This document shows positions 8,248 through 50,109 of a DNA stretch of 50,109 bases, piece by piece (within the stretch, counting starts at the first letter, position 1; each line of letters begins with the position of its first letter). This DNA comes from Shigella phage pSf-2. The notes beneath the pieces are model-generated. The model saw only the letters and a program-made list of their open reading frames with translations. It had not been told where the DNA came from and did no database searches. The DNA lies in sequence record KP085586; one strand, given 5' to 3'. A program made the translations under genes and the position numbers.

Positions 8248-8259
8248 GGAGATCTGGAA

Positions 8260-28453: not shown

Positions 28454-28472
28454 GATTACTTCTCCGTAGTTA

Positions 28473-28499: not shown

Positions 28500-28507
28500 C
28501 TTCAATA

Positions 28508-28525: not shown

Positions 28526-28544
28526 GCGTCAAAGTGTTTTTATG

Positions 28545-29312
28545 TTATGCATCAACCTCTGGCTCTGGCACTGCTTCTACGCGATAAGCAATGGTTGCCG
28601 TCGTCTTGCTGGCATCGTTAGCCGTCCATGTGATATTGAAATCACCGACAGATTCTCCACCAGCAGGAGTTACAAGACCTGAGTCAGGATCGATAGTAGC
28701 GATATTGGTAGCGTCTATTGACCACTTGCCAGTCTTATCAGTTGCATTAGCTGGAATAACATTAGCTACACACTGGATCGTAACGTTGTTTGGCTGAGGG
28801 CTTTCCTTGTCAGTGGTGATTGTAGCGGACTCAACAAGAACGACAGGGGGCGGCGGCGGTGGAACGATGAAAGCATTTTGTTTCACCTGAACCTCAATAA
28901 TGTAGCCATCTTCATGCTTAACAAAGCCGCCAGCAAAGGTCCATCCTGCGGAACCAGACCAACCAGTAACAACTCCACCAGATCCAAACTGCAACTTTGA
29001 GAACAAGCCGGGAGCCTCATCAAGAGAAGTAAGCGCCCACATGCGACCGTGAGAAACGACGTTGCAAACTTCGCCGTCGAGAATTTTACCGCTCAGGTGT
29101 TCATATTGAGAACGGAAAGCGATACCGTAAGGAGTCCCGCCATCAGAAAGTACTTTGACGACTTTTACACCATCAACGATGCCGACAACCTGAACCGCCG
29201 CGCCGAACTCAATGTCACCTTGAGCCACACAAGCGCCATCAATATTGTAGGTTGAAGTATCAGAAAGATTTCCCGGACACGCCGGGCGCAACATTAAATT
29301 TTCGTAAGCCAT
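28545..29312 (-). CDS. capsid-associated protein, paralog of 29374..29850 with poly-Pro linker and Ig-like C-terminal domain
   Basis: Shared N-terminal YNIDGACV...GAAVQVV...TPYG block; PPPPPPP linker. Confidence 0.5.
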   Translation of the reverse strand: MAYENLMLRPACPGNLSDTSTYNIDGACVAQGDIEFGAAVQVVGIVDGVKVVKVLSDGGTPYGIAFRSQYEHLSGKILDGEVCNVVSHGRMWALTSLDEAPGLFSKLQFGSGGVVTGWSGSAGWTFAGGFVKHEDGYIIEVQVKQNAFIVPPPPPPVVLVESATITTDKESPQPNNVTIQCVANVIPANATDKTGKWSIDATNIATIDPDSGLVTPAGGESVGDFNITWTANDASKTTATIAYRVEAVPEPEVDA

Positions 29313-36780: not shown

Positions 36781-36986
36781 GCCTCATCTCCTTCTTCTTC
36801 GATCGGGGTAAAAAACTGAGTGTTCACTGCCGGGTTATAATAAACTCCGTCGTCATAGTCGCTTTCTTTCACTTCAATAAAAGCGTCACAACCGTCATGC
36901 ATGAAATCACCATTATCAGTATGAACCAGTTCGAATACTTCAGAAGTTTTAGTGCAAGTGAAAAACTTATCAGTTGATACCATCAT
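36777..36986 (-). CDS. hypothetical acidic protein
   Basis: 69-codon ORF, first gene after motif/promoter at 37045. Confidence 0.5.
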   Translation of the reverse strand: MMVSTDKFFTCTKTSEVFELVHTDNGDFMHDGCDAFIEVKESDYDDGVYYNPAVNTQFFTPIEEEGDEA

Positions 36987-37044
36987 TTCGATTTTCTCTC
37001 TTCGTTGTCGATGAGGTAACTATATCAAATCACCCCACCGACGT

Positions 37045-37062
37045 TTTAGCAATTCGTGCTAT
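37045..37062 (-). promoter_or_regulatory. 18-bp dyad motif copy (tttagcaattcgtgctat)
   Basis: Overlaps TAG stop of kinase gene; minus strand: 22 nt then tatagt (37019-37024). Confidence 0.7.
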
Positions 37063-37631
37063 TTGTTGATGAACGTGGCGGCTATGTGCTGAGCGGTAAT
37101 TTCTGGATGACCTTCGACAGAAAAGAAGTCACACTCATGATAACCGTTGACACCGATCATATCGTCAAGATAGATATAGTCGCGGCTGTCGTTGTCAAAG
37201 TTGCAACCGTTGCGATGGATTCGACACAGCTTGACCTGGATGTCACCTTCAATCATCTGCAAGATCTCGTCTTTGAATCCACCGTCAGTAAATACCGAAA
37301 GTGAATGCGACTCTTTCACCTTGCTTTCCGCTCGCATACCGAAGAAGCGATTTCCGAACTGCGGCTTGATGACCTCCTCGCTAATCCAGATCATAAACTG
37401 GCGCGGGCTTTTACCGTTCAGGATTGATGCTGGCTCTTCTTTATATCGACGGTCCTCATACAAGAACATGAAATACTCGTAGTTAGCTTCACCCAGGATT
37501 GCCCGGGCAATCTCAAACATTGGCGCTTTGAAGCTGCGTAGCGCTACATGATCGTAAGTGTCAGCCAGGATGCATCCGATAGTGTCCTTTCCTGCGCCAG
37601 GCGCGCCGTTTAAAATGATAGCTGTTTTCAT
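37059..37631 (-). CDS. P-loop kinase (dNMP kinase / polynucleotide kinase-like)
   Basis: N-terminal Walker A MKTAIILNGAPGAGKDT resembling T4 dNMP kinase / Pnk kinase domain. Confidence 0.6.
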   Translation of the reverse strand: MKTAIILNGAPGAGKDTIGCILADTYDHVALRSFKAPMFEIARAILGEANYEYFMFLYEDRRYKEEPASILNGKSPRQFMIWISEEVIKPQFGNRFFGMRAESKVKESHSLSVFTDGGFKDEILQMIEGDIQVKLCRIHRNGCNFDNDSRDYIYLDDMIGVNGYHECDFFSVEGHPEITAQHIAATFINK

Positions 37632-37632
37632 G

Positions 37633-37743
37633 TTAGCATCTCCCTAAAAATAATTTTGCCATATTGATGATAGTGTGATTGATGATTAACAGGATGATAA
37701 CCGTCAATACCGGATGTGCTGCAATAAATTCGTACAGGTTCAT
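37633..37743 (-). CDS. small hydrophobic protein (36 aa, not in ORF track)
   Basis: ATGA overlap with HAD gene stop, TAA 1 nt before kinase ATG; TM segment PVLTVIILLII. Confidence 0.3.
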   Translation of the reverse strand: MNLYEFIAAHPVLTVIILLIINHTIINMAKLFLGRC

Positions 37744-38273
37744 TCATCTACCCCGTGAGATTTTAAATGATTGTGAACGTTATCGCCATAGTCAACTACA
37801 GCGTAAGTGGTTATCCCAAGCGATCGGAATAATGGAATAATTTGCGGCGAGTCATCCCAGGCCGCCAGAATGTTCTCAATACCGATAGCGCGCACCGCCT
37901 CCTCTTTCATCACCGTATCTTTCCGGTTATCGGTGTGCGGACGCATAATCAGGTAATCATATCGCGCACCGTAGCGCTTTAACCATAACTTTGATTCGTG
38001 ACGCACCTCATCACTACGTCCGGTTAAGATAATGACGTGATAACCCGCAGCAAATAATGAGTTCATCACCTCAATAGTGCTCTGAATAGGATCGTCATGA
38101 TTTGCTGCACGGTTAAATTCAGACCAACTTTCCGTAAGGTGCAAATCATTTGTCGGTAGCAAGTGGAGGCGCTTTGAGCCATCGCTAAGCGTTCCGTCAA
38201 AGTCAAAGATTGCTACGCGGCGCGCGCCGAGAAACAGGTTGATTGTCTGGCCCCAAATTGTGATTTTATCCAT
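37740..38273 (-). CDS. HAD-superfamily phosphatase (Pnk 3'-phosphatase / 5'-nucleotidase-like)
   Basis: DxDGT motif FDFDGTL near N-terminus; HAD-like spacing of later Asp residues. Confidence 0.6.
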   Translation of the reverse strand: MDKITIWGQTINLFLGARRVAIFDFDGTLSDGSKRLHLLPTNDLHLTESWSEFNRAANHDDPIQSTIEVMNSLFAAGYHVIILTGRSDEVRHESKLWLKRYGARYDYLIMRPHTDNRKDTVMKEEAVRAIGIENILAAWDDSPQIIPLFRSLGITTYAVVDYGDNVHNHLKSHGVDE

Positions 38274-38476
38274 TATGCTTTCTCCTGTACGCGAATGATT
38301 TTGATGGTTAATTCTTCTTCAACAATTTTGTAGCCGGATGATTCAAATTTACTCTCACGAGTCTGATTGCATGAATCAATAACGACCTGGCTATTCTGAA
38401 TATCGTCAGCCATGCCGATTAGCATGCTAACGATCTGCGTTCTCGTTTCGTTGCTCATTCCGGTAATAGTTTTCAT
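38273..38476 (-). CDS. hypothetical protein (start moved to internal ATG)
   Basis: acgaggaag SD before ATG 38476; track start 38518 lies inside promoter hairpin. Confidence 0.45.
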   Translation of the reverse strand: MKTITGMSNETRTQIVSMLIGMADDIQNSQVVIDSCNQTRESKFESSGYKIVEEELTIKIIRVQEKA

Positions 38477-38532
38477 GATCGCTTCCTCGTTTGTTGGCGT
38501 AGGGGAATCATAGCGCATTCCCCTTGATAGGT

Positions 38533-38550
38533 TTTAGCAATTCGTGCTAT
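38533..38550 (-). promoter_or_regulatory. 18-bp dyad motif copy (tttagcaattcgtgctat)
   Basis: Minus strand: 22 nt then tatgat inside 8-bp inverted repeat aggggaat/attcccct. Confidence 0.7.
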
Positions 38551-38752
38551 TCGTTTTAATGGTGATGCAAAAATAATTTTTTAAGCACGTCACCACGCGC
38601 GCCGAATCGACTTGTGGGAGCCTTAAAATTTCGTGGACCAATTGCACTGCCGAAACCTCAGATTTGTAGTAGTGTGCGATTCTGGAGCTATTTGGGAGCA
38701 TTCCTTCCACTGCATCGCGTGCTGCATCTTCTGCTGTCATGATGGTAGCCAT
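38534..38752 (-). CDS. hypothetical protein; C-terminus encoded by the motif
   Basis: 72-codon ORF ending ...NSTNC* across the motif. Confidence 0.35.
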   Translation of the reverse strand: MATIMTAEDAARDAVEGMLPNSSRIAHYYKSEVSAVQLVHEILRLPQVDSARVVTCLKNYFCITIKTNSTNC

Positions 38753-38855
38753 AAAACACCCTTAAGAGATAATGTCAGGATCAGTAGGCAAAATAGCAAC
38801 TCCTGAAATGATGGCGGCTCGTTATTCCAGTTAGAAAAGTCTGGCATAGTGTTTT

Positions 38856-38893
38856 CTCCAAAAGAAAGGGGAACCGTTCAGAGCCGATTCCCC
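38856..38893 (-). terminator. Rho-independent terminator
   Basis: ggggaa/ttcccc stem with 14-nt loop followed by T-rich run on minus strand. Confidence 0.45.
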
Positions 38894-38900
38894 ATTAGCA

Positions 38901-39539
38901 TTACATGATGAACAACAGCGAAATCGAAGCGACCAAGAGAACAAGAGCGATAGCCAAACCAGACAAATCTGCCTTCTCTTCAAACTTCAGCGCTGGCTTA
39001 CGGTCAACTTCCGACGGCTTGACGTTGTGGATCTTGTTAGCTGCAACATTGCCATTGACGCTGAAAGTGCGCTTGCGCTTCTTGCCGAACGTTGCGAACT
39101 TAGTGCCGCCGCTGTTCCAGCGAAGGCCTTCGCCATTGTGAGTTACGGTTGCAATTCGGTGGCGGCCCGTGTCATCGGTCAGCGCTACAGTGTGCTTTGC
39201 GTGCTCAGTAGGCACGTCGTAGATTTTGCCAACAGTAAATTTTTTGGTGTTATCGCTGATACATTCGAATTTCATAAATTTTACCTCTTTATTATGCAGT
39301 TGGTTGATTGCTTCGATTACGTCGTTAAATTTAACACCATCCACGATCCGATGAAAGATATATTTTGAACTACCGCCATACGGAAGGAAAATTTCCTGAT
39401 ATTCGCGACGACGGACAATGTTCACGTTACTACCGTGCTCATCAGTAATGATGAAGCTGTCATCATTTACGCGAACACCTTTGTAAGTTTTTCCCCACTT
39501 AAAACCAGATCCGCTACTTGATACGCATTCAAATTTCAT
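38901..39539 (-). CDS. tail-anchored membrane protein with two tandem copies of a small Cys-containing domain
   Basis: Repeats MKFECVSSSGSGFKWGKTYKGV and MKFECISDNTKKFTVGKIYDV; C-terminal TM LAIALVLLVASISLLFI. Confidence 0.55.
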   Translation of the reverse strand: MKFECVSSSGSGFKWGKTYKGVRVNDDSFIITDEHGSNVNIVRRREYQEIFLPYGGSSKYIFHRIVDGVKFNDVIEAINQLHNKEVKFMKFECISDNTKKFTVGKIYDVPTEHAKHTVALTDDTGRHRIATVTHNGEGLRWNSGGTKFATFGKKRKRTFSVNGNVAANKIHNVKPSEVDRKPALKFEEKADLSGLAIALVLLVASISLLFIM

Positions 39540-39823
39540 GGTCTAACCTTCCTGTAAGGTTTGATTGATAACATCACGTACTGCGTGAAGTAGCATTCTT
39601 GCTCGTCATACCCGCGATTGATGTATGGCGTCACATCAGTAACATCAGATACCCTGGCGTGAACTTCCCACCCGGTAAACTCATCGCGATCGAACTCGCA
39701 TAGCTCCAGGATATCGCCAGGCTGGAAGTTTCGGTCATTGACGCGGAACTCTGCCGTTTTGGTTCCGTTCATTACTCCGATGAAATGTACCGGGGCGATT
39801 TTTAACTTATGAGTTTTGCTCAT
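39536..39823 (-). CDS. ASCH/DUF3850-like PUA-fold protein
   Basis: N-terminal KLKIAPVHF...GTKTAEFRVNDRNFQPGDIL pattern. Confidence 0.5.
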   Translation of the reverse strand: MSKTHKLKIAPVHFIGVMNGTKTAEFRVNDRNFQPGDILELCEFDRDEFTGWEVHARVSDVTDVTPYINRGYDEQECYFTQYVMLSIKPYRKVRP

Positions 39824-40013
39824 CTTTCTTTACCTCGAATGTCACGTTCCAGAATTTATTGCCGCATGAATGATAGATTACGTCCTGAGACGTGAGTTCG
39901 TGCAATGCGTGCCCGATAATCTCCATTCTGTCGTTCGGTGTCAATCCGCGAAGTGATTCGCGTATGCGTGATGCCTTGTCGTAAATCTGCCACTGAGTGA
40001 GTCGTGTAGCCAT
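39807..40013 (-). CDS. hypothetical protein (start moved to internal ATG)
   Basis: Track start 40055 lies inside promoter hairpin; ATG 40013 follows aaccaatcagag leader. Confidence 0.4.
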   Translation of the reverse strand: MATRLTQWQIYDKASRIRESLRGLTPNDRMEIIGHALHELTSQDVIYHSCGNKFWNVTFEVKKDEQNS

Positions 40014-40079
40014 AGCTGATTTCTCTGATTGGTTGCCGTGCTTCAATAAGGCCACTATATCAAATGGCCTTGCGGAAGG

Positions 40080-40097
40080 TTTAGCAATTCGTGCTAT
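40080..40097 (-). promoter_or_regulatory. 18-bp dyad motif copy (tttagcaattcgtgctat)
   Basis: Minus strand: 22 nt then tatagt inside inverted repeat aaggcca/tggcctt. Confidence 0.7.
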
Positions 40098-40243
40098 CGT
40101 TTAACGCACATCGTTTTTACTTCATATCCGAACGGCTTATTCTCTGCAATTACTTCCCGAGCCTTGTTGCATGATTGCTCACTTTCCATGTATACGTGAT
40201 CCGGCCCAGTGCCCATTAAGATAATCAAAACCCATGCAGCCAT
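40094..40243 (-). CDS. small hydrophobic-N-terminus protein (49 aa, not in ORF track)
   Basis: gaggtg SD; TAATG overlap with upstream gene; TAG stop inside motif. Confidence 0.35.
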   Translation of the reverse strand: MAAWVLIILMGTGPDHVYMESEQSCNKAREVIAENKPFGYEVKTMCVKR

Positions 40244-40749
40244 TATTTCACCTCATAGCGTACAAGTGTTCCGCGCTTAATGCTGATTTCACCTGATACA
40301 GTCTTGTTCTTAAAGCCGCCGTAATGCAACAGGAGAATCACTACGTCATCGTGTACCTCAATAGTTTTAGGCGTTGCGGTAATGTCGGCCCAGGATTCGC
40401 TATCAAGCTGGACACCCTTTAGCGTCGCGCTCAATGGCATGTTCTCGATCTGAGTGCACTGTAGCATTGGCTTGATTTCTGGCTTTGCAGCTTTGAATAT
40501 TGAGCCTTCAATCTTCCAGCTATCATACAAGCTGTAAGCATTCTGATTGCCACTCATAATGTAGTGGTAGTCCTTATTTGGTGAATTTTCTTTATTCACT
40601 TCGTTATGTCTGGCTATAAACCATTCCAGCTTAAGCTGCGACACCTCATCGGTGGCCCACGTACCCTTATCTTCATCGGTGAACGTAATTTCACCACATC
40701 CCAGACTGATAAATTTGATCGGGAATTTGACGTCTTCTAATTTCAACAT
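40243..40749 (-). CDS. hypothetical protein
   Basis: 168-codon ORF, aagagga SD, first gene after promoter at 40806. Confidence 0.55.
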   Translation of the reverse strand: MLKLEDVKFPIKFISLGCGEITFTDEDKGTWATDEVSQLKLEWFIARHNEVNKENSPNKDYHYIMSGNQNAYSLYDSWKIEGSIFKAAKPEIKPMLQCTQIENMPLSATLKGVQLDSESWADITATPKTIEVHDDVVILLLHYGGFKNKTVSGEISIKRGTLVRYEVK

Positions 40750-40805
40750 AACTCTTTCCTCTTAGTTGTTGGCGTGGGGATTATACCAGTCAGGACAAAT
40801 CCCCT

Positions 40806-40823
40806 TTTAACAATTCGTGCTTA
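40806..40823 (-). promoter_or_regulatory. 18-bp dyad motif copy, variant (tttaacaattcgtgctta)
   Basis: Minus strand: 22 nt then consensus tataat inside inverted repeat ggggatt/aatcccc. Confidence 0.7.
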
Positions 40824-41309
40824 GTAAACTAACTCGCACTCAATATCGAACGGCTCGGCGTTACAGTGGAAGAAGCAAAGTGCCTCTTTATTCATCCCGC
40901 CGACAAATCCAACGGCTCGCAACTGCTCATCGTTAACGTATGCCAGGTTGCCAGTAATTCTTTCAAAGTCCACAATAACTGGGAACGTGCGGTTCTCATA
41001 ACCTGGTCGCATCGGGTAGCCGCCATTGTTGAGAAGTCGAACCTTGCGCGGCTTAGGATTTGCTTGGACTTCCCATCCGAAGAAGAACATCGTTCCGTCA
41101 TTCTCGTTAAGGTCAGCCGGACCAAATACAGGGCTAACCGAAAGTCCATAGTCCAGATCGTACACTCCAGCTTTAACCAGATCGTCAACCTTAACGCGGT
41201 AGCCTCCAGTGCTGGAATCGCATTTAACCGCATCAACCACGATAGGGTCTGCTTCCAGGTTTCGGGTAAAGCCTTTGTAACCGCCAGTGCAAAGTAATTT
41301 GATTTTCAT
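40821..41309 (-). CDS. hypothetical protein
   Basis: 162-codon ORF downstream of promoter at 41367. Confidence 0.55.
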   Translation of the reverse strand: MKIKLLCTGGYKGFTRNLEADPIVVDAVKCDSSTGGYRVKVDDLVKAGVYDLDYGLSVSPVFGPADLNENDGTMFFFGWEVQANPKPRKVRLLNNGGYPMRPGYENRTFPVIVDFERITGNLAYVNDEQLRAVGFVGGMNKEALCFFHCNAEPFDIECELVY

Positions 41310-41366
41310 GTTTGTATCCTCGTTCGTTGTCGATGGGGTTACTATATCGCAACCCCGATATTGTGT

Positions 41367-41384
41367 TTTAACAAAAAGTGCTAT
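41367..41384 (-). promoter_or_regulatory. 18-bp dyad motif copy (tttaacaaaaagtgctat)
   Basis: Overlaps TAG stop of 41381..41572; minus strand: 22 nt then tatagt. Confidence 0.7.
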
Positions 41385-41572
41385 TCTTTAATCTCGAAGC
41401 AATCAGTATCTTCGTCGAATATCCAGGGATCGCCATTATCATCAAGCAATGAGATATTCCCGAAGCTGGTTAGTGACGCGTTATAAGGCTTGTTAACGGT
41501 AAAGCACCCTTTAACTTCCTCATCATCACTGCCTTTGAATACTGCAATCATTTGGTGCATAAAATCAGCCAT
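41381..41572 (-). CDS. hypothetical acidic small protein
   Basis: 63-codon ORF, aggat SD. Confidence 0.45.
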   Translation of the reverse strand: MADFMHQMIAVFKGSDDEEVKGCFTVNKPYNASLTSFGNISLLDDNGDPWIFDEDTDCFEIKE

Positions 41573-41581
41573 TGTTAAATC

Positions 41582-41752
41582 CTATTCGCAAGTAATTTCA
41601 TTTGATGTGATTGGTAGCAATACGTTGCCGACCATCATGAACGTAGTAACCTGGTTTCCGGTTTCATGGCATCGCTCTTTTACCTCTCCACAACCGGACA
41701 CCACAAGGATAGCCAGGGCGACCGCCGCCATCATGCAAATAAGAATACGCAT
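41582..41752 (-). CDS. small lipoprotein candidate (start moved to internal ATG)
   Basis: Signal peptide with lipobox VVSGC; track start 41773 is GTG; TGATG coupling with upstream small ORF. Confidence 0.4.
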   Translation of the reverse strand: MRILICMMAAVALAILVVSGCGEVKERCHETGNQVTTFMMVGNVLLPITSNEITCE

Positions 41753-41862
41753 CATTCGAACGCTCCAGCACACAGTAGTAACATGATTACGATCCCGTCA
41801 ATGGCATGACCCATGCAGAAGAACCAGACGGCAGACCATAAGGCAATTGTATTGAAGTTCAT
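41752..41862 (-). CDS. small hydrophobic protein (36 aa, not in ORF track)
   Basis: gaggtg SD, ATGA overlap with upstream gene; hydrophobic LWSAVWFFCMG...IVIMLLLCAGA. Confidence 0.3.
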   Translation of the reverse strand: MNFNTIALWSAVWFFCMGHAIDGIVIMLLLCAGAFE

Positions 41863-42086
41863 TTCAGCACCTCGATCTTGTTGTCACCGATTGAGTTTTC
41901 TACTACCGATTGCGGGTCATCGCCAGGAACGCGCATGTAGAAATTACTAACCGCCGTGAAGTTCCATTGACCGCGCCACTTGAAATAGACTCCGTGCTTT
42001 GCGCCCATGGCGTAGTGAGTTGATTTTGCCGGGATCATGTGCCCGTTGACTCGGGTTAGTTGAGTTAGGTTGCTGTAACGTGGCAT
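41859..42086 (-). CDS. hypothetical protein
   Basis: 75-codon ORF in coupled operon. Confidence 0.5.
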   Translation of the reverse strand: MPRYSNLTQLTRVNGHMIPAKSTHYAMGAKHGVYFKWRGQWNFTAVSNFYMRVPGDDPQSVVENSIGDNKIEVLK

Positions 42087-42091
42087 GATTA

Positions 42092-42322
42092 TTACTCCTC
42101 AATTAAAGTGCTGATATCGTCAAAGCCCTGGAGGTCTGCGTTCCAGACTAGGAAGTTTGCAAGGTTTTCGCACCACACCCATTTCCCGTTATCCTCCATG
42201 TATGTTTTGTGCCCACCCGGTACGGCACTGACAGCAAATCGCTTGTTGTCGCGAGTGATGAAAATAGCAAAGCGGTTGTGGCTGGTTGAGTCGATGGCTT
42301 GCTGGTTCTTGACGATTGACAT
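42092..42322 (-). CDS. hypothetical protein
   Basis: 76-codon ORF; accaatcagagg leader before ATG 42322. Confidence 0.5.
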   Translation of the reverse strand: MSIVKNQQAIDSTSHNRFAIFITRDNKRFAVSAVPGGHKTYMEDNGKWVWCENLANFLVWNADLQGFDDISTLIEE

Positions 42323-42386
42323 GGTGATTCCTCTGATTGGTATCTCGTTTCGATGGGGTAACTATATCAAGATACCCCGATTCGTT

Positions 42387-42404
42387 TTTAACAATTCGTG
42401 CTAT
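42387..42404 (-). promoter_or_regulatory. 18-bp dyad motif copy (tttaacaattcgtgctat)
   Basis: Overlaps TAG stop of 42401..42871; minus strand: 22 nt then tatagt flanked by ggggta/tacccc. Confidence 0.7.
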
Positions 42405-42871
42405 TTGGTGAGATATTTCACACAGCTTCCGGCAGTCTCATTCCAGCCATCCTCAAAGAATACGCCATAGCAAGTTGTCGAACGCTGGCGAACCTTCGAC
42501 ACAGTGCGCCACACTTTACGGCCCGAGTAACCAGTCAGCACACGCATCCCCGGCAACAACTCACCAGCCTTTCTCACCTCAATGGTCACATCAGAACCAA
42601 GCTCGAAAGACTCAAGGAAAACCGGGTCAATCATATCACACATGCGGCGCTCTTCATGCCCATCGTGCCACTCGCCACCATCTCTTAATTTAACATGCTC
42701 AATAAATCGACTAAGTTTTTCAGTGATCGAGTCGCAGGCGTAGGAGTTGATATCGATAACCGTGTAGCGACTGTACATATGCCAGTGCGATCCGGTTTTA
42801 TGCTCGAACGCGAATAATGACATAGCGCCGTCAACATTATCTTTAGCAAGAAATACGGTAATGGTCGCCAT
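42401..42871 (-). CDS. hypothetical protein
   Basis: 156-codon ORF, agagg SD. Confidence 0.55.
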   Translation of the reverse strand: MATITVFLAKDNVDGAMSLFAFEHKTGSHWHMYSRYTVIDINSYACDSITEKLSRFIEHVKLRDGGEWHDGHEERRMCDMIDPVFLESFELGSDVTIEVRKAGELLPGMRVLTGYSGRKVWRTVSKVRQRSTTCYGVFFEDGWNETAGSCVKYLTK

Positions 42872-42873
42872 GA

Positions 42874-43068
42874 TTAAGCCTCTGCAAAGTAAGTGTTAAA
42901 GCCTTTGAGTTTGTAGTCGCTACCTACGCGCACAACATTCCAGGTAAGGCCAGAGTGATACGCCACCATATCTTCCAGGTCGATTGTGATTTCAGTTCCT
43001 TTCTTGAACAGACCCTTTTCATGGGTTGAGTCCCGCTGAACAACCACTACGTCAATTTGCGTTTCCAT
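42874..43068 (-). CDS. hypothetical protein (start moved to internal ATG)
   Basis: agagga SD before ATG 43068; track start 43134 lies inside the motif. Confidence 0.45.
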   Translation of the reverse strand: METQIDVVVVQRDSTHEKGLFKKGTEITIDLEDMVAYHSGLTWNVVRVGSDYKLKGFNTYFAEA

Positions 43069-43126
43069 CTTTGTTTCCTCTGTATCGTTTCGATGATAAG
43101 ATAATACCCGATCCGCTAGACCGGGC

Positions 43127-43144
43127 TTTAACAAAAAGTGCTAT
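43127..43144 (-). promoter_or_regulatory. 18-bp dyad motif copy (tttaacaaaaagtgctat)
   Basis: Overlaps TAG stop of 43141..43461; minus strand: 22 nt then tattat. Confidence 0.7.
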
Positions 43145-44129: not shown

Positions 44130-44390
44130 CTATAGAAATATATGGCTCTCAAAAAAAGTACTGTATATATAAACACTCAGATAGAAATATGCCAACAGTA
44201 CGCTAGACAATGTAAGACAGCTATACACAACTATTACAATATAATTATCTATATATATAAATAAAAAAAACACTATATATATTATATATATACATATATC
44301 TATATGTATATTGTGAGGCGTCACAGTGTGTATTTTTGTCACAAGTGCGATTCTAGACAAATATTACAGTCGTGACAAGTTAAAGTGTAA
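44130..44390. repeat. AT-rich tract with (TA)n/ATATA runs and TAGACA / GTCACAAG repeats; candidate origin or early control region
   Basis: Long ATATATA-type tracts at 44160-44320; repeated ctagacaa, gtcacaag/gtgacaag words. Confidence 0.45.
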
Positions 44391-44393
44391 TCG

Positions 44394-44411
44394 ATAGCAC
44401 TTTTTGCTAAA
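44394..44411 (+). promoter_or_regulatory. 18-bp dyad motif copy (atagcactttttgctaaa)
   Basis: First rightward copy; no clear -10 at 22 bp. Confidence 0.5.
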
Positions 44412-44598
44412 AATGGAGATGAATGCCAGGCGAACCGGGTAACACCAATTCCTCCCTCTCACAATCATTGCATTCTCAGCAACAAATCAACCAACTGTTG
44501 CACACCATGCAATAATCACGTTTCATCATTCGTAATCAATAACAATCAAGATTATTCCACCTATTCCAGTATTGATTGAATAATGAGCAATTATTGGA

Positions 44599-44616
44599 AT
44601 AGCATTTTTTGCTAAC
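44599..44616 (+). promoter_or_regulatory. 18-bp dyad motif copy, variant (atagcattttttgctaac)
   Basis: tatgat about 23 nt downstream, then caaccaatcaggag leader to ATG 44675. Confidence 0.6.
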
Positions 44617-44674
44617 GACTTAGCAAGGCCGATTGGGTATGATTCATCACATCAACCAATCAGGAGCAATCGAC

Positions 44675-44818
44675 ATGACAACTGCAAACATCAACGCAAC
44701 AATTAATCGTTACGAACACATCTATCGCGTAGCGCTGTTCTCTGACATGGCGTTAGCTAACAAGGCGAAGTTAATAATCGACAAACTGAATCACTACAAA
44801 AAGGAGATCGAAAAATGA
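44675..44818 (+). CDS. hypothetical small protein (start moved to internal ATG)
   Basis: aggag SD 8 nt before ATG 44675; track start 44633. Confidence 0.4.
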   Translation: MTTANINATINRYEHIYRVALFSDMALANKAKLIIDKLNHYKKEIEK

Positions 44819-45519
44819 AGTTGATTTGGTCGCTATTCGACGGTTCCGGCCTGGCAGGTCATGAACTGGCAAAGCAAGGTCATAAGGTGATGTGCTTCAA
44901 CTTTGACGGGGCAGATCACGGAGATTACGCAAAGTACAATGCCCGGGTAGAGCATCCGAACATTGAGTATGTGAACGTCTTCATTGATGAGAAGTTCGAA
45001 CGTGATGCGATCGCTGGTGTGTATGGCAAACCTGATTTCATCATGGCTTTCCCACCATGCACTGACCTAGCTGTTAGTGGTGCTCGCCATTTTGCCAGCA
45101 AGCGTGAACGTGATCCGTTATTCCATGAGAAGGCTGTTGCCACCGCTCGGATTGCTGCTAATATTGGCGAAGCTATGGGCGTGACGTACATCATTGAGAA
45201 TCCGGTTAGCGTCCTGTCATCTGCCTGGAGAAAACCAGATCACTCCTTTAATCCCTGGGAGTATGGCGGCTATCTTCCTGAGAATGACTCACATCCCTGG
45301 TTCCCGATGTATATTGCGCCGCGCGATGCTTACCCTAAGAAGACGTGTCTTTGGACCTCGGACGATTTTGTCATGCCGGAGAGAAATCCAGTAAGCCTGC
45401 CTGACGGGTACTCTGCACAGCAAAACAAGCTGGGCGGCAAGTCTGCCAAAACTAAGCTGATACGATCCCTGTCGCCGCGTGGATTTTTCAAAGCGATCGC
45501 AAATAGCACTTTTTGTTAA
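44815..45519 (+). CDS. minimal C5-cytosine methyltransferase-like protein
   Basis: Motif I-like LFDGSGLAG, PC motif FPPCTDLAVSG, ENV-like IIENPVS with canonical spacing; only 234 aa; aaggag SD. Confidence 0.5.
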   Translation: MKLIWSLFDGSGLAGHELAKQGHKVMCFNFDGADHGDYAKYNARVEHPNIEYVNVFIDEKFERDAIAGVYGKPDFIMAFPPCTDLAVSGARHFASKRERDPLFHEKAVATARIAANIGEAMGVTYIIENPVSVLSSAWRKPDHSFNPWEYGGYLPENDSHPWFPMYIAPRDAYPKKTCLWTSDDFVMPERNPVSLPDGYSAQQNKLGGKSAKTKLIRSLSPRGFFKAIANSTFC

Positions 45520-45520
45520 A
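45503..45520 (+). promoter_or_regulatory. 18-bp dyad motif copy (atagcactttttgttaaa)
   Basis: Encodes C-terminal ...NSTFC* of upstream gene; 22 nt then cataat. Confidence 0.7.
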
Positions 45521-45579
45521 ACTCGATCGGTGTGATTTGGCATAATTACCTCATCGAAACGAGATTGAGGAAAAACAAA

Positions 45580-45765
45580 ATGGCACGTCGCATCACTAAA
45601 GACCTTAAAGTCCTGAACAAAGAAAACGTAGTTAAAATTCTGGTTATTTGGGGTTACAACGAAGAATCAGCAAAGCATAAGGTAGAAGCGGGTTACGACC
45701 TGGCTGTCAAGGCAATGCCTAACGACGACGCCAAAGGCATTGTAAACTATGTAGCATTCTTTTAA
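45580..45765 (+). CDS. hypothetical small protein (start moved to internal ATG)
   Basis: gagga SD before ATG 45580. Confidence 0.45.
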   Translation: MARRITKDLKVLNKENVVKILVIWGYNEESAKHKVEAGYDLAVKAMPNDDAKGIVNYVAFF

Positions 45766-45780
45766 TTAACGGGCTAACAA

Positions 45781-45966
45781 ATGAAAACGAAATTAGTGCA
45801 TAAATCAGAAATCAAGATCGGCGATACTGTGATTCACAACGGAGAGCTTAGAACAGTTGGTAAGGAGTCAATAAGCAGAGATGAATTTATGGGGTTATTG
45901 TTGTTCGGCGACTCCTATCGCCTGGGGTGCAAAATGGTTGAGCTTGTTGAGGAAGTAAAATTCTAA
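45781..45966 (+). CDS. hypothetical small protein
   Basis: 61-codon ORF, weak SD. Confidence 0.4.
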   Translation: MKTKLVHKSEIKIGDTVIHNGELRTVGKESISRDEFMGLLLFGDSYRLGCKMVELVEEVKF

Positions 45967-45984
45967 ATAGCACGAATTGCTAAA
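45967..45984 (+). promoter_or_regulatory. 18-bp dyad motif copy (atagcacgaattgctaaa)
   Basis: Starts right after TAA of upstream gene; 22 nt then cattat; leader shared with copy at 5207. Confidence 0.7.
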
Positions 45985-46048
45985 CATGCCGGAATGGAAT
46001 CTGGCATTATTACTTCATCGAAACGAAACATCAAAACAGGAATCGGAA

Positions 46049-46231
46049 ATGAAAAAGTTAACATCAAACACAAAATATGAAATTATTGACGGTGAAGCTA
46101 TTATTTATGCTCGCGCGAAAGGATCAAATAAACTAACAGCCGCATTCAAATGCCACCCAGCGACAATTGATCTCATCAAAGAGTATGGATTCAAGTCGGC
46201 TATAAGCAAGTCGTTATTATGCAAGGCTTAA
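46049..46231 (+). CDS. hypothetical small protein (start moved to internal ATG)
   Basis: aggaa SD before ATG 46049; track start 45977 lies inside motif. Confidence 0.45.
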   Translation: MKKLTSNTKYEIIDGEAIIYARAKGSNKLTAAFKCHPATIDLIKEYGFKSAISKSLLCKA

Positions 46232-46300
46232 CGCTTTGGGTAAAAATATAAACAATGACACACAATACTATAAGTGGGATCTCGTAAAATATTTATCAAA

Positions 46301-46318
46301 ATAGCACGAATTGCTAAA
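46301..46318 (+). promoter_or_regulatory. 18-bp dyad motif copy (atagcacgaattgctaaa)
   Basis: 22 nt (with hairpin ccccga/tcgggg) then tatagt; caaccaatcaggag leader to ATG 46377. Confidence 0.7.
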
Positions 46319-46376
46319 CGCCCCGAAGGGAATCGGGGTATAGTAAACAACATCAACCAATCAGGAGAATCGCCAG

Positions 46377-46607
46377 ATGGCAATCAAACATCCCGGATTA
46401 AAGAAAGCAATCCAGCGAGCCAATGACGAGGGATTTATTGTATATCGAACACATTACGGTCACATGGGTGGACTTAAAGAGCATCATACAAAGGTTGAGC
46501 TTGTGGACTTATGGGAGGATTACGATACATTCCAGTACATCGCCACGTCTGACGTAGAGGCGCAAGTGAAATACATCAATGACACTATTGATAGCTTCAG
46601 AGGGTAA
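46377..46607 (+). CDS. hypothetical protein
   Basis: 76-codon ORF with aggag SD. Confidence 0.5.
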   Translation: MAIKHPGLKKAIQRANDEGFIVYRTHYGHMGGLKEHHTKVELVDLWEDYDTFQYIATSDVEAQVKYINDTIDSFRG

Positions 46608-46611
46608 TTAT

Positions 46612-46983
46612 ATGTTTAAGCAGTTCACAGATCTGGACTTCTCAGCCAGCACGGCAATCAAGACTGACGAGAAAGAAAGCGTAGCGATCGAGAACATCGC
46701 GCGCAAGATTTACAACAAGCAAGAGAAGGCCGTTAGAGCCGCTCTGAGCGCTTATTACGGTGTAAGTGATGCAATGGAGTGTGTTAGCAGGGTAACGCGC
46801 GTAGTGGACAGTTCTGGCGCGCCTCGTTTCGTAGATGACGATACTGGCGAGACAATCATTCAACTTAACAATCCATCCATGCGCACAGAGTTAGGAAACG
46901 TCGCATTGTGGGGCGTGGCTAACTACTCAATCACCGTCAATTCCTGCATTGCGCACCGTGTTAAGGAGGCATTGTATGAGTGA
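46612..46983 (+). CDS. hypothetical protein (start moved to internal ATG)
   Basis: ATG 46612 five nt after upstream TAA; track start 46579. Confidence 0.5.
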   Translation: MFKQFTDLDFSASTAIKTDEKESVAIENIARKIYNKQEKAVRAALSAYYGVSDAMECVSRVTRVVDSSGAPRFVDDDTGETIIQLNNPSMRTELGNVALWGVANYSITVNSCIAHRVKEALYE

Positions 46984-47176
46984 TAATATTTACCGCGTAG
47001 TGGCGATCTCACGCAAGACGCAAAAGAGCGTAGTTGCCTACATGGGAAATAGCGCCATTGAGGCAACAGACGACTTCGAGCTACTGAAGAATAACGAAGG
47101 ATTTATGAACACGTTCCGCGTTCGACTTGAGCGTCTCGAACCTGTTATAATTGATGAAGCGCGAAAGCTATCCTGA
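46976..47176 (+). CDS. hypothetical small protein (start moved to internal ATG)
   Basis: aaggagg SD before ATG 46976; overlaps upstream TGA. Confidence 0.45.
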   Translation: MSDNIYRVVAISRKTQKSVVAYMGNSAIEATDDFELLKNNEGFMNTFRVRLERLEPVIIDEARKLS

Positions 47177-47192
47177 CTGGTTAGGGGGAATA

Positions 47193-47513
47193 ATGAACCA
47201 CACTTATAAAATCACAACGAAATCACCGAAGATTAACGGAAGCACGGTCGCGGCATTGAATAACGCGGCAGCAATCCACGAAAAAAACATCATGGAGCGC
47301 GTGAAGGCGGCAGTAGGCCGATTCTATGGAATCAACGCTGATATTGCCGACAGCAAGCGACTGTTCAAATACGTGCCAGGTCATCCATATAGCCGGATGA
47401 TCGATATTAAGCATGATAAAGAACTGGTTCGAATCGGATCGCTTAGCATTGACGAGTTCGACCATAGCATTAACCTTGTGACGGCGTATCAAACATGGGA
47501 CGGTAAAAAATGA
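47193..47513 (+). CDS. hypothetical protein (start moved to internal ATG)
   Basis: aggggg SD before ATG 47193. Confidence 0.5.
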   Translation: MNHTYKITTKSPKINGSTVAALNNAAAIHEKNIMERVKAAVGRFYGINADIADSKRLFKYVPGHPYSRMIDIKHDKELVRIGSLSIDEFDHSINLVTAYQTWDGKK

Positions 47514-47653
47514 TTTATATTCACACTTTCTATACTGGCAAATTTAACAGCGTAAAAAATGTTCGCGTTTACGATAGCCACCAAAAAGCAATGATGCAGA
47601 AAGTAGTTCTAGGTGGAACAATCAAAGAGTGTAAAGTAATTTCCGAGTACTGA
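47510..47653 (+). CDS. hypothetical small protein (47 aa, not in ORF track)
   Basis: ATGA overlap with upstream stop; TGA merges into next motif copy. Confidence 0.3.
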   Translation: MIYIHTFYTGKFNSVKNVRVYDSHQKAMMQKVVLGGTIKECKVISEY

Positions 47654-47670
47654 TAGCACTAATTGCTAAA
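47653..47670 (+). promoter_or_regulatory. 18-bp dyad motif copy (atagcactaattgctaaa)
   Basis: -10-like gtatat/tatatt at 22-23 nt; 60 nt upstream of ATG 47731. Confidence 0.6.
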
Positions 47671-47730
47671 GACAATAAATAGGGAGTAAGGTATATTACT
47701 CCAACACCAAACGAAATAAAGGAATTAAAA

Positions 47731-47955
47731 ATGAGTATTAAAGTTGAGAATATCATCAAGCATCTGAACGCGAAAGGACGTGTAGTTATCAAAATGGATA
47801 AGTCTTCCGGTTTTGTTTCAATGACGGTAACTAAGGCTCGGAACGGTAATAACGTTATTGGCAGCACACCAGGATCGCGCTTAGTAAATGCAACAGATGC
47901 GGATGTTCGCGCAACGCTTGAGGCTAACTCGATTTACATTAATTCATGGGGCTAA
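47731..47955 (+). CDS. hypothetical small protein
   Basis: 74-codon ORF with aaggaa SD. Confidence 0.5.
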   Translation: MSIKVENIIKHLNAKGRVVIKMDKSSGFVSMTVTKARNGNNVIGSTPGSRLVNATDADVRATLEANSIYINSWG

Positions 47956-47958
47956 TTA

Positions 47959-48171
47959 ATGGAACAGGATAATTTCTGGACTCGTTATTTTGCCGCGCTC
48001 GATGCCGGGCTTAGTGCGGAATGGTGTATCAAGGTTGCATATAAAGAAATTACGCTTGACGACGCACTAGGGAATATGGATATGGACGCAGAAAGTGAAT
48101 ATAATCCCGACTTCGAGATGCCCGGCGATGATATTGGTGATAATGACGACGACGATTATATTCCCTGGTAA
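47959..48171 (+). CDS. small highly acidic protein (DNA-mimic candidate)
   Basis: C-terminal third about 50 percent Asp/Glu (DFEMPGDDIGDNDDDDYIPW). Confidence 0.45.
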   Translation: MEQDNFWTRYFAALDAGLSAEWCIKVAYKEITLDDALGNMDMDAESEYNPDFEMPGDDIGDNDDDDYIPW

Positions 48172-48189
48172 ATAGCACGATTTGTTAAT
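48172..48189 (+). promoter_or_regulatory. 18-bp dyad motif copy, variant (atagcacgatttgttaat)
   Basis: Starts right after TAA of upstream gene; 22 nt then taaagt; aaccaatcaggag leader. Confidence 0.6.
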
Positions 48190-48251
48190 ATTGCCGTAAG
48201 GTCATTTGATAAAGTGGCCTTATTCAAGATAACCAATCAGGAGTGAACGCA

Positions 48252-48668
48252 ATGAAATCCATCAAACTTAAATGTACTTCCGCAGACAAAATCACAGGAT
48301 TTGAAGTTAACAACCTTTACAAAGGTCGAGAGCGCTACGATGGAACTCGTGAGGTTAAGTTAAAGTGCGGTAAGTATTTAAAACTTGATAAGCATGATGA
48401 ATTACAGATTCACGGATCTGATGAAATCTTCTTCGCAAAATTCACTGAACTTAAAACCAAAACACTCAAGTGTACCGGGCTTGACCATCGCAACACAATG
48501 AAAAAATCATTCAAAGTTGGCAAGCGTTACCAGGTGGAAAGCGGTCGTGCTCTCGGTGGAGTGGCTGGTTACATCTTTGATGAGGACGGTTGCCGCTGGA
48601 CATTATTCCGCGAAGAGGTTGGTTTTAGTATTGCTGACGGCACAACCTTTGAGGCCAAATACTTATAA
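48252..48668 (+). CDS. protein with tandem small Cys-containing repeats (start moved to ATG 48252)
   Basis: aggag SD; track start 48243 is GTG; repeats KLKCTSADKITGFEV / TLKCTGLDHRNTMKKSFKVGKRY resemble those in 38901..39539. Confidence 0.5.
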   Translation: MKSIKLKCTSADKITGFEVNNLYKGRERYDGTREVKLKCGKYLKLDKHDELQIHGSDEIFFAKFTELKTKTLKCTGLDHRNTMKKSFKVGKRYQVESGRALGGVAGYIFDEDGCRWTLFREEVGFSIADGTTFEAKYL

Positions 48669-48671
48669 CCA

Positions 48672-48689
48672 ATAGCACTTTTTGCAAAA
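48672..48689 (+). promoter_or_regulatory. 18-bp dyad motif copy (atagcactttttgcaaaa)
   Basis: 22 nt then tatcat (48710-48715); aaggag SD and ATG 48745 follow. Confidence 0.65.
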
Positions 48690-48744
48690 CGCGTGTACCA
48701 TTGGCGGTGTATCATTCACACCGTCAACTAAGGAGTTTATTGTG

Positions 48745-50109
48745 ATGTTTAATATTAAGCCAAAGCTGAATTACCAACAGATTATTGAGATCGCAAATAG
48801 CACTGGAGTGAATCCGGTGGCGATCGCAATTCGTGAAAACAGTTACGGGGATTCAGTTTCTTTTTGGCAAGATCCGATCGATATCAACAGCGGAAACGAT
48901 AAGTTCCCTCTGATTTCGTTAGGTGGCGATAACCTGGTATTCGAATATGCAAAAGCAAAAGCTGAATCAGTCCAGTTCCCGGTTTCATCCGCGTATGCTC
49001 ATTTTATCGGTTGCATCTCAGCCGCGATGCTCGGGAAGTTTTGGGTGCAATATCATGGAGAAGAACAGCCGACAGCGCTTTACATGGTAATCAGTCAGCC
49101 ACCATCAACAGGTAAATCAGCGATTAACTCAGCGGCGATTACACCTATGCGTGCGGAGATTCAGCGACTGAATGAAGAGCGCAAAAAGGAACGTATCCGT
49201 TTAACCAGTCAGCTACGTCAGGTCGAGAAGGAAATAAAAAACGATCCGAAGGGTAACACGACGGCGGCTCTGTACGAGGACAAAGAAAAACTGGAAGAGA
49301 AGATCAAGAAGATGGCTGATATTGTTTTCGCGGTATCAGATCCTACACCTGAAGGTCTTGCGAAAGTGGCGGCAGTGCAAGGTCACTTTTCCGTAATATC
49401 TGACGAGGCAACGGCAATCAATACATTGCTCGGGCTTACGTATGGCGGTTCAGATAAGAAATCTAACAGTGAGCTTATCCTTAAGGCGTGGGATAAAAAC
49501 CATATGGAGGTCGCGCGTTCAAATCAGGACAACAACTTATCTCTTTGCCCGGTCGGTTCGATCTGCGTCATTGCGCAGGATGAAACAATCAAGGGTATCA
49601 TGGATGCAGGCCAGCGAGGTATCGGTGTGTCCGAACGTTTCCTGTTGGTTCGCGAGGAGCCGCTTTTAGGTACTCGTATTCTTTGCGATGAAAATGGCGA
49701 TGCGCTGTATAAGGAAGTCGATCGAGGATTGGTTAGTAAATATTATCGACTCGTTCACAACATCATGAAGGAGGACAACGTTGTTCTCTCTGTGAGCCGT
49801 AATGCTATGCGTGAATTAAACCTTGCGCGCCAGGCGATGGAGCCTGATTTCGCCGCCGGGGGGAAATACTCTCACTCAATGCTTCGCGGTCATCTCGGCA
49901 AGTTCGATAAGCACGCTTTGCGTATTGCTTCAGTTCTACACACGATCAAGAATTGGGAGGGTGAATCACCGAACCGTTCCAACCGTGAGATTGACCTTGA
50001 AACAATGCAGGAAGCGATCATGATCTTCAATGAGCTTTCCAAGACTTATCTGTCGTCTGCCAGCGCTGCCGGGTATGCTGGTGATGAGGCTGAATCTCGT
50101 AAGCTGATT
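48745..50109 (+). CDS. P-loop NTPase, replication helicase/primase-associated ATPase candidate (3' truncated at window end)
   Basis: aaggag SD before ATG 48745; frame open to the last base; Walker A QPPSTGKS, Walker B-like ICVIAQDE. Confidence 0.6.
   Translation, partial: MFNIKPKLNYQQIIEIANSTGVNPVAIAIRENSYGDSVSFWQDPIDINSGNDKFPLISLGGDNLVFEYAKAKAESVQFPVSSAYAHFIGCISAAMLGKFWVQYHGEEQPTALYMVISQPPSTGKSAINSAAITPMRAEIQRLNEERKKERIRLTSQLRQVEKEIKNDPKGNTTAALYEDKEKLEEKIKKMADIVFAVSDPTPEGLAKVAAVQGHFSVISDEATAINTLLGLTYGGSDKKSNSELILKAWDKNHMEVARSNQDNNLSLCPVGSICVIAQDETIKGIMDAGQRGIGVSERFLLVREEPLLGTRILCDENGDALYKEVDRGLVSKYYRLVHNIMKEDNVVLSVSRNAMRELNLARQAMEPDFAAGGKYSHSMLRGHLGKFDKHALRIASVLHTIKNWEGESPNRSNREIDLETMQEAIMIFNELSKTYLSSASAAGYAGDEAESRKLI

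Follow-up and report, generated by a model that had tools for sequence, protein, structure and literature searches.

The window analysed here is a 50,109-bp stretch of DNA from Shigella phage pSf-2 (sequence record KP085586), and our subject is a short repeated motif within it, TAGCACnnnTTGYTAAAA in outline, that lies upstream of small early genes. Gene content and gene order across the whole window are those of phage T1, and on sequence grounds the window is essentially the complete genome of a virulent T1-like siphovirus (Tunavirus, Drexlerviridae). The 6.2-kb region 36986-43144 is its leftward early arm, which carries small minus-strand genes of unknown function and is 88-90% identical to many Tunavirus genomes (LeonhardEuler, SH6, JMPW1, ADB-2, and Shfl1).

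This arm contains seven modules on the minus strand, each with a copy of the motif, a -10-like hexamer, a predicted transcription start, and an ATG. We read the motif as a marbox, the predicted site of the host activators MarA, SoxS, and Rob (see below), and give its copies as 20-bp marbox coordinates. Module 1 (36986..37062) has its marbox at 37062..37043 (ATAGCACGAATTGCTAAAAC), TATAGT with TG at 37024..37019, a start at ~37012, and an ATG at 36986. In module 2 (38476..38550), the marbox at 38550..38531 is followed by TATGAT at 38512..38507, a start at ~38500, and an ATG at 38476. The marbox of module 3 (40013..40097) lies at 40097..40078 and matches 14 of the 14 specified positions of the 20-mer marbox consensus; TATAGT with TG is found at 40059..40054, the start at ~40047, and the ATG at 40013. 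Module 4 (40749..40823) combines a marbox at 40823..40804 (TAAGCACGAATTGTTAAAAG) with TATAAT and TG at 40785..40780, a start at ~40773, and an ATG at 40749. Two modules have exact matches to the 15-mer marbox consensus, namely module 5 (41309..41384; marbox 41384..41365, TATAGT 41346..41341, start ~41334, ATG 41309) and module 7 (43068..43144; marbox 43144..43125, TATTAT 43106..43101, start ~43094, ATG 43068). Between them, module 6 (42322..42404) has a marbox at 42404..42385, TATAGT with TG at 42366..42361, a start at ~42354 (the A of CATCGAAACGA), and an ATG at 42322.

To place these modules in the context of the whole window, we searched it with the pattern TAGCACNNNTTGYTAAAA, allowing up to two mismatches, and found 22 copies compared to 0.36 expected from shuffled sequence. 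The 15 copies whose coordinates had been named in the original prediction were all genuine. A -10-like hexamer (second base A, sixth base T, and at least 4 of 6 matches to TATAAT) begins exactly 22 nt past TTGYTA in 18 of the 22 copies, where at least 17 had been claimed, and the hexamers are those that had been listed (TATAGT, TATAAT, TATTAT, TATGAT, CATTAT, TAAAGT, and TATCAT), with CATAAT in addition. A second scan used the published 15-mer marbox consensus, GCAHWWWWTGYYAAA, for which a gap of 20 nt is equivalent to 22 nt after TTGYTA. Here, 17 of 24 copies had a hexamer at the 20-nt gap, while every other gap from 10 to 30 nt scored only 0-3. As such hexamers occur at 2.2% of random positions in the window, the binomial probability of 17 in 24 is 1.6e-23. 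In three copies the distance is off by one, being 23 nt at 44599 and 47653 and 21 nt at 12276.

The motif itself is already known. In a 2024 re-annotation of phage TLS, a 21-nt direct repeat, aaATAGCACnnnTTGnTAAAA, was reported to occur 21 times, ~76 nt upstream of start codons and oriented with transcription, and it was noted also in T1, Rtp, and Rogue1 (PMC11447400). Its authors found only three sigma-70-like promoters and suggested that the repeat might be a stoperator, an enhancer-binding site, or an UP element (PMC11447400). This repeat is the same element as the motif in the window. We compared five genomes from four Drexlerviridae lineages: the window, T1, TLS (Tempevirinae), Rtp (Braunvirinae), and Klebsiella phage KP36 (Webervirus). 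The latter four have 16-22 copies each, and the 20-nt gap is found in 17 of 24 copies in the window, 15 of 22 in T1, 15 of 21 in TLS, 14 of 16 in Rtp, and 14 of 16 in KP36, with a phasing P value between 1e-20 and 1e-24 in each genome. The spacing is thus constant in ~75 promoters, while the intervening 20-22 nt vary from copy to copy. Conservation of the distance but not of the sequence between argues that a factor bound to the motif is physically coupled to RNA polymerase at the -10. In a scan of IMG/VR, multiple copies of the motif were found only in T1-like contigs of about 50 kb; two single matches, in contigs of 96 kb and 149 kb, look like chance.

A sequence logo and per-position counts were derived from 74 promoters pooled from the five genomes and numbered with the predicted start 7 nt past the hexamer. 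Features that had not been selected for support this start: A is found at +1 in 62 of the 74 and a pyrimidine at -1 in 67. This numbering puts TAGCAC-NNN-TTGYTA at -49 to -35, with its centre at -42, where it had been predicted. GCAC (-47 to -44) and TTG (-40 to -38) are invariant, AAA at -35 to -33 is nearly so, and the -10 consensus is TATAGT/TATAAT. Upstream, the promoters have A at -50 (68/74), T at -49 (67/74; T or C in 71/74), and A at -48 (73/74), although the search pattern did not select for A-50 or T/C-49. The central triplet (-43 to -41) falls into subclasses in all genomes, namely TTT (37/74), GAA (24/74), and TAA (7/74), which were also remarked on for TLS (PMC11447400); these might reflect different affinities for Rob, MarA, and SoxS, or different temporal classes.

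No -35 element accompanies these sites, as had been claimed. We found no TTGACA-like hexamer 16-18 bp upstream of the -10; the hexamer at the 17-bp position is AAAACN, and the mean match to TTGACA there is 1.55 of 6 across the 74 promoters. A consensus sigma-70 scan of 36900-44700 did not call any of the motif sites as a promoter, and canonical sigma-70 promoters were not enriched in that interval (14 found compared to 15.7 expected). The sequence tests also agree with the proposal that each small early operon has one promoter of this kind.

Match of the motif to the host marbox

The marbox consensus has been published both as the 15-mer used above and as a 20-mer, AYNGCACNNWNNRYYAAAYN. The phage consensus, ATAGCAC-(TTT/GAA/TAA)-TTG-Y-T-AAA-A, agrees with 14-15 of the 15 positions of the former and, across the 74 promoters, with 13 of the 14 specified positions of the latter, the exception being position 19, which is mostly A. 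The 15-mer is matched exactly at 10 places in the window and with one mismatch at 24, compared to 0 and 1.4 in Markov-chain simulations and 0 and 2 in phage lambda. The geometry also corresponds to that of a known class of host promoters. At class II mar/sox/rob promoters, a forward marbox overlaps the -35 position, sites cluster near -41, and a canonical -10 is present with no recognisable -35 (mean match 1.9 of 6). In the phages, the conserved 20-bp marbox (A-T-A-GCAC-nnW-TT-G-Y-T-AAA-n-n) spans -50 to -31, is centred at -40.5, and lies 18 bp from the -10 hexamer, and all 74 copies with a -10 at the standard spacing share the orientation of micF, with GCAC distal and AAA proximal to the -10. 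Orientation, overlap with the -35 position, centre, poor match to TTGACA, and a sigma-70 -10 are therefore all those of class II.

The E. coli promoters micF and inaA provide a direct comparison. In the MG1655 sequence, micF has GCACTGAATGTCAAA, 20 nt, and TAGAAT, with the annotated RNA start 8 nt past the hexamer, and this marbox-to-hexamer gap is identical to that of the phages. Upstream of inaA, a marbox-like 20-mer, ACGACACGTTTCATTAAGAT, is separated by 18 nt from TATAGT, again the phage spacing. The phage sites thus resemble these class II promoters in having an asymmetric, forward 20-bp marbox over the -35 position, centred near -41, with no -35, a sigma-70 -10, and the same gap, which is 20 nt if measured from the 15-mer core and 18 nt if measured from the 20-mer. 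We also considered fumC as a spacing standard, and it has several overlapping -10 candidates.

The motif had been described as a dyad, and this holds only in part. Perfect 5-bp arms (TAGCA/TGCTA) are present in 33 of the 74 sites, but position -44/-40 never pairs, and the flanks are asymmetric, as the mirror positions of AAA (-35 to -33) are A rather than T. What remains is a pseudo-dyad that arises because the marbox consensus itself carries GCA...TGC. Proteins of the MarA type act on DNA as monomers, and the site that they bind has an orientation. Our reading of the motif is that of an asymmetric marbox, a predicted site of the monomeric host activators MarA, SoxS, and Rob, rather than a true dyad. 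The original analogy was to the classic class II activator position. Class II promoters of CRP and FNR likewise have a site near -41.5 in place of the -35; those sites, however, are true dyads for dimers, whereas the phage site lacks such symmetry and has a strict orientation. The class II activator architecture as such is supported by the missing -35, the fixed phasing, and a conserved putative protein-binding motif at the class II position, and we infer that these promoters would depend on an activator.

We estimate a probability of a little under 60% that the modules are promoter cassettes of the class II mar/sox/rob type, with host MarA, SoxS, or Rob as their activator. In this model, the marbox would take the place of the missing -35, with a sigma-70 -10 exactly 18 bp downstream, often with TG or G-14, and a C-A start signal 7 nt further on. 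A host monomer of the AraC/XylS family would bind the marbox, contact RNA polymerase, and substitute for -35 recognition, as at E. coli micF. Rob, which is constitutive, would serve at all times, MarA or SoxS, which are stress-induced, would do so under stress, and RamA would take this role in Klebsiella; unmodified host polymerase would then transcribe every small early operon. An upstream stop codon (TAG at -49 to -47 or TAA at -36 to -34), a stem-loop, and a 25-nt leader with a ribosome-binding site would complete the module.

The original prediction looked to candidate phage factors as activators, and this is probably wrong. A Pfam scan of 53 early or small open reading frames (ORFs) returned no AraC-type domain (HTH_18 or HTH_AraC) and neither MotA nor AsiA among all 23 families listed, and the first 25 of the 59 families listed for 85 ORFs likewise contained none of these. 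Searches with phmmer using MarA and SoxS against all six-frame fragments gave only hits with E>1. The hosts of these phages, in turn, all belong to the Enterobacteriaceae, which have MarA, SoxS, and Rob. Because no AraC-type phage protein was found, and because the first promoter of the rightward arm (44599) already has the motif before any phage protein exists, a host monomeric activator is more likely than a phage protein. Among the phage proteins, a weak Cro-like helix-turn-helix protein (ORF 7746-8198) alone is recognisable as a regulator; it is a homologue of T1 gp23, is conserved in T1, Rtp, TLS, and KP36, and its gene is flanked by two motif copies. A dimer of this protein, or one of the early proteins of unknown function, most of which have no detectable family, could in principle act on the motif as a class II activator or temporal regulator, and the sites with a perfect inverted repeat (TAGCA-N5-TGCTA) would suit such a dimer. 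Half of the sites break the dyad, however, with T at -37, and a symmetric dimer site does not require the single orientation seen in all promoter-linked copies. The match to the host system in sequence, orientation, and spacing would also have to be a coincidence, and we consider a phage-encoded factor unlikely.

Several observations weigh against a role for MarA, SoxS, or Rob. Unstressed cells contain little MarA and SoxS, and Rob is reportedly largely sequestered without an inducer, yet T1-like phages grow rapidly in ordinary cultures. In the 20-mer, position 19, specified as Y, is A in 56 of the 74 sites, and the GAA subclass has G at a W position of the 15-mer. Among the early phage proteins without a family, there may be one of a different fold that recognises the same site. 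G is frequent at -14 (62/74, 84%), as is the full TG of an extended -10 (34/74, 46%), and many of these promoters could therefore fire as extended -10 promoters without an activator. In the literature searched, we did not find any rob, marA, or soxS phenotype for these phages, nor any start-site mapping or transcriptome for a Drexlerviridae phage.

Hairpins, stop codons, and leaders of the modules

The 44 nt from the marbox to +12 have a strong tendency to fold, with a mean z of -2.95 relative to shuffles and 72% of sites below -2 (75 promoters in the five genomes). The hairpins are more stable on the sense than on the antisense strand (-12.2 compared to -10.0 kcal/mol), which suggests G-U pairs at the RNA level. 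Some stems stop at the first bases of the -10 and others enclose it, and the hexamer is conserved whether it lies past the stem or in the loop. As the stems are not in one register, covariation between column pairs in a fixed register gave only a weak signal (z up to 3.3). In the leftward arm, the hairpin of module 1 reaches -22.4 kcal/mol (z=-6.1), while those of module 2 (GGGGAAT/ATTCCCC) and module 6 (GGGGTA/TACCCC) enclose the -10. Related genomes (T1, SA30RD, and KP36) annotate these hairpins as rho-independent terminators. In our terminator scan, only one of the seven hairpins in 36986-43144 had a T-rich tail, the spacer hairpin of module 7 (43126..43106, minus strand), and in many the -10 lies inside the loop. 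The stem-loop probably attenuates read-through from upstream, in the manner of the promoter-early stem-loop (PeSL) cassettes of the T4-type phages RB49 and phi1. A canonical intrinsic terminator that is not linked to a marbox is also present inside the early arm at 38868-38893 (minus strand; GGGGAATCGGCTCTGAACGGTTCCCC followed by TTTCTTTT), indicating that genuine terminators coexist with the promoter hairpins.

These hairpins bear on the idea that the modules are extended -10 promoters that need no activator, with the motif retained as an UP-like polymerase contact, as part of a terminator or attenuator, or as a homology block by which mobile promoter/stem-loop cassettes shuffle early genes. 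The frequent G-14 and TG, the stable folds, and their annotation as terminators would all suit such promoters. The PeSL cassettes of RB49 and phi1, whose stem-loops terminate transcription in vivo, have the same layout of stop codon, promoter, stem-loop, and Shine-Dalgarno sequence, and UP-element and "enhancer" ideas were raised for TLS (PMC11447400). On the other hand, the invariant GCAC and TTG are unlike an A/T-tract UP consensus, and neither recombination homology nor termination requires motif and -10 to be phased to the single base over variable sequence. The terminator scan passed only one hairpin in seven, and the -10 is conserved both in the loop and past the stem. We regard promoters without an activator as improbable, and activation through the marbox remains the reading that we prefer.

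The marbox is also fused to the end of the preceding gene. TAG is found at -49 to -47 in 66 of the 74 promoters and is usually the stop codon of the upstream gene. In module 1, for example, TAG at 37061..37059 (minus strand) ends the upstream gene 37059..37631, and other examples are found at 41381-41383, 42401-42403, and 43141-43143. TAA at -36 to -34 closes a second frame and is used by the gene ending at 38534. Downstream of the start, a conserved leader (ATCGAAACGA or CAACCAATCAGGAG) of median length 25 nt runs to the Shine-Dalgarno sequence and start codon. Its variants over +1 to ~+25 (e.g., 42354-42323) read ATCGA(A/C)AACGA... or end in CAACCAATCAGGAG just 5' of the start codon. This leader may be a shared signal for translation initiation or RNA processing.

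Other explanations of the motif were tried and rejected. Sigma-54 promoters have the consensus GG-N10-GC (TGGCAC-N5-TTGC) at -24/-12; TAGCAC-N3-TTGC is 2 bp too short, has AG for GG, and lies 22 nt upstream of a sigma-70 -10. CCCCAT follows the -10 in many copies and recalls sigma-32, but at 29 nt it is too far from TTGTTAA. If TTGYTA itself were the -35, the 22-bp spacer would be outside the range of sigma-70, and TTAAAA and TAAAAC at 18 and 17 bp match TTGACA at only 2-3 positions. Read as an extended -10, TGYTAAAAN lacks T at -7, leaves the conserved downstream TATAGT and CA start unexplained, and would put the hairpin at the 5' end of the RNA. UP elements have an A/T-tract consensus at -59 to -38 that is contacted by the alpha C-terminal domain, and the phage sites have invariant GCAC at -47 to -44 and TTG at -40 to -38 instead of A/T tracts. 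A T4 MotA-type box would be in the wrong position, as the box here lies at -41 to -33, and MotA and AsiA are not among the families listed in the scans above.

Other marbox copies in the window

Modules of the same kind are found outside the leftward arm. Four further minus-strand modules lie within 2138..7733, with the marbox at 2213..2194 and TATAGT at 2175..2170, at 4201..4182 and TATAGT at 4163..4158, at 5224..5205 and CATTAT at 5186..5181, and, for the helicase gene, at 7733..7714 and TATTAT at 7695..7690. A variant upstream of the Erf-like recombinase gene (12221..12295, minus strand; marbox 12295..12276, ACGGCACAAATAGCTAAACA; TATAAT 12258..12253; ATG 12221) has its -10 one nt closer than usual and enclosed by the hairpin GAGGTG/CACCTC, and the same site is present in T1 and KP36. 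The rightward early arm (44599..48745, plus strand) has seven modules, with marbox and -10 starting at 44599 and 44638 (TATGAT), 45503 and 45541 (CATAAT), 45967 and 46005 (CATTAT), 46301 and 46339 (TATAGT), 47653 and 47692 (TATATT), 48172 and 48210 (TAAAGT), and 48672 and 48710 (TATCAT). The gap is one nt longer at 47653 and at 44599, the promoter of the first gene of this arm.

One copy at the head of the leftward arm (44394-44413) does not have a -10 at the standard spacing and is reversed relative to a canonical minus-strand promoter (44343..44413), with TTGTCA at 44378..44373, a 17-bp spacer, and TAGAAT at 44355..44350. In class I mar/sox/rob promoters, a good -35 is combined with a marbox that is reversed and lies about 50-70 bp upstream of the start, and the phage copy agrees with this arrangement, with 15 nt between marbox and -35 and a centre at ~-60.5. 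The class I promoter of E. coli mar has a reversed marbox, 16 nt, and TTGACT-17-TATTAT, compared to the gap of 15 nt in the phage, and T1 shares the geometry with different promoter hexamers. A ~400-bp non-coding stretch (43990-44400) separates the divergent early arms and contains long alternating A/T repeats (atatatacatatagatatatgtatatatataatatatatag) and, at 44378, 44310, and 44076 on the minus strand, three candidates for canonical sigma-70 promoters. It is probably an immediate-early control region, a packaging or replication region, or both.

Other copies lie where a bound protein would be expected to have a different effect. In the control region of the major capsid gene (28453..28545, minus strand; ATG 28453), a reversed marbox (28508..28527) fills the spacer of a canonical TTGACG-16-TATTAT promoter, and a hairpin with a T-run (GCCGTGaacataatCACGGC TTTTTT) lies downstream, ahead of the ribosome-binding site. 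This layout is conserved in T1 (15050-15140) and TLS (15010-15080). It points to repression through the factor that binds the marbox, to antitermination being needed for late transcription, or to both. The Cro-like regulator gene has its own near-consensus plus-strand promoter within 7660-7746, TTGAAT-17-TATAAT (7689-7694), whose -10 overlaps that of the opposing helicase promoter (TATTAT, 7695..7690), and the helicase marbox falls at about +13 to +32 of the regulator transcript. These divergent promoters would be mutually exclusive and could form a switch. At the other end of the regulator gene, a plus-strand marbox (8182..8201, in the region 8182..8262) overlaps its stop codon, with the GTG start of the primase gene at 8260 downstream; at the usual distance from this marbox is TAACAT, placed in the loop of a strong terminator hairpin (-17.3 kcal/mol, z=-5.2) that has a T-run after it. 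Marbox-like copies also abut the ribosome-binding sites of late genes at 35212-35231 (minus), 18555-18574 (minus), 24743-24762 (plus), and 9256-9275 (minus). The genes concerned are those for the small terminase, tail protein J, a tail gene, and the tail fibre, the copies occur in both orientations with no room for a downstream -10, and the same sites are found in T1 and TLS. Beyond the copy at 24743, at the usual distance, is TG-TACGAT, which points antisense to the tail genes.

Such copies are relevant to the stoperator idea, in which, by analogy with mycobacteriophage L5, a protein bound to the site would block elongating polymerase or repress. The site is asymmetric, intergenic, and oriented with transcription, and in the spacer of the capsid promoter or between promoter and ribosome-binding site of the late and regulator genes, binding should indeed repress. 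The phage is virulent, however, and no such repressor is among the families listed in the ORF scans. A roadblock would not need exact phasing with a -10 and a start signal, and a site at -50 to -31 leaves the -10 unoccluded, making a stoperator very improbable as the function of the motif.

It is intriguing to consider a wider version of the marbox reading, in which the temporal programme of a virulent phage is run on a host stress regulator, although we think this decidedly unlikely. Some 20 early promoters (class II, with one class I) would owe their activity to Rob, MarA, or SoxS, while the same protein would hold down the capsid promoter through the spacer site and act likewise on the leader of the regulator gene. 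Upon replication, thousands of near-consensus marboxes would soak up the few thousand activator molecules; early promoters would be turned down, the late promoter released, and the host mar/sox/rob defence (efflux and envelope remodelling) stripped. If so, phage growth would be tuned by bile salts, salicylate, oxidants, or antibiotics.

Related promoter systems and implications

The modules can be compared with several known systems. The PeSL cassettes mentioned above are repeated units of upstream stop codon, early promoter, stem-loop, Shine-Dalgarno sequence, and start codon, and the phage modules share this organization. PeSL stem-loops lie between -35 and -10 or over the -10 and contain G-T pairs. 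Unlike the modules, which have a marbox for the -35, PeSLs have a consensus -35 and -10 and need no activator. The middle promoters of T4, which depend on MotA and AsiA, are likewise a class of phage promoters without a -35 that have a TTTGCT-containing box upstream of a sigma-70 -10. The MotA box is located around -30, 11-13 bp from the -10, whereas the box in the window is 18-22 bp from it, and MotA and AsiA are not among the ORF families listed. The host mar/sox/rob promoters themselves differ from the modules in that their marboxes are degenerate, while a virulent phage genome here has ~20 near-consensus copies per 50 kb, and in that the predicted phage marboxes form one unit with a stop codon, a stem-loop, and a conserved leader. 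The TLS re-annotation mentions neither the phasing with a -10 nor the identity with the marbox (PMC11447400), and we did not find any paper in the literature searched that links the marbox, Rob, MarA, or SoxS to these phages or to phage promoters. As far as the literature was searched, both the exact phasing and the marbox identity are new.

T1 is one of the original T phages, and its transcription by unmodified host polymerase has never been explained, with annotators finding only a handful of sigma-70 promoters. Reading the motif as a class II marbox provides a concrete and testable mechanism for a repeat to which the TLS re-annotation assigned no function. If true, it would apply to the early genes of the Drexlerviridae, a family with hundreds of isolates on E. 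coli, Shigella, Klebsiella, Salmonella, and Citrobacter, and these would be the first phages, as far as the literature was searched, to use the antibiotic-resistance regulators MarA, SoxS, and Rob as promoter-recognition factors. Many therapeutic Klebsiella and E. coli phages are T1-like, and their early expression could then respond to antibiotics, bile, and oxidative stress, while the phage genome could act as a sponge for these regulators. The modules would also represent compact, portable promoter parts that are gated by an activator.

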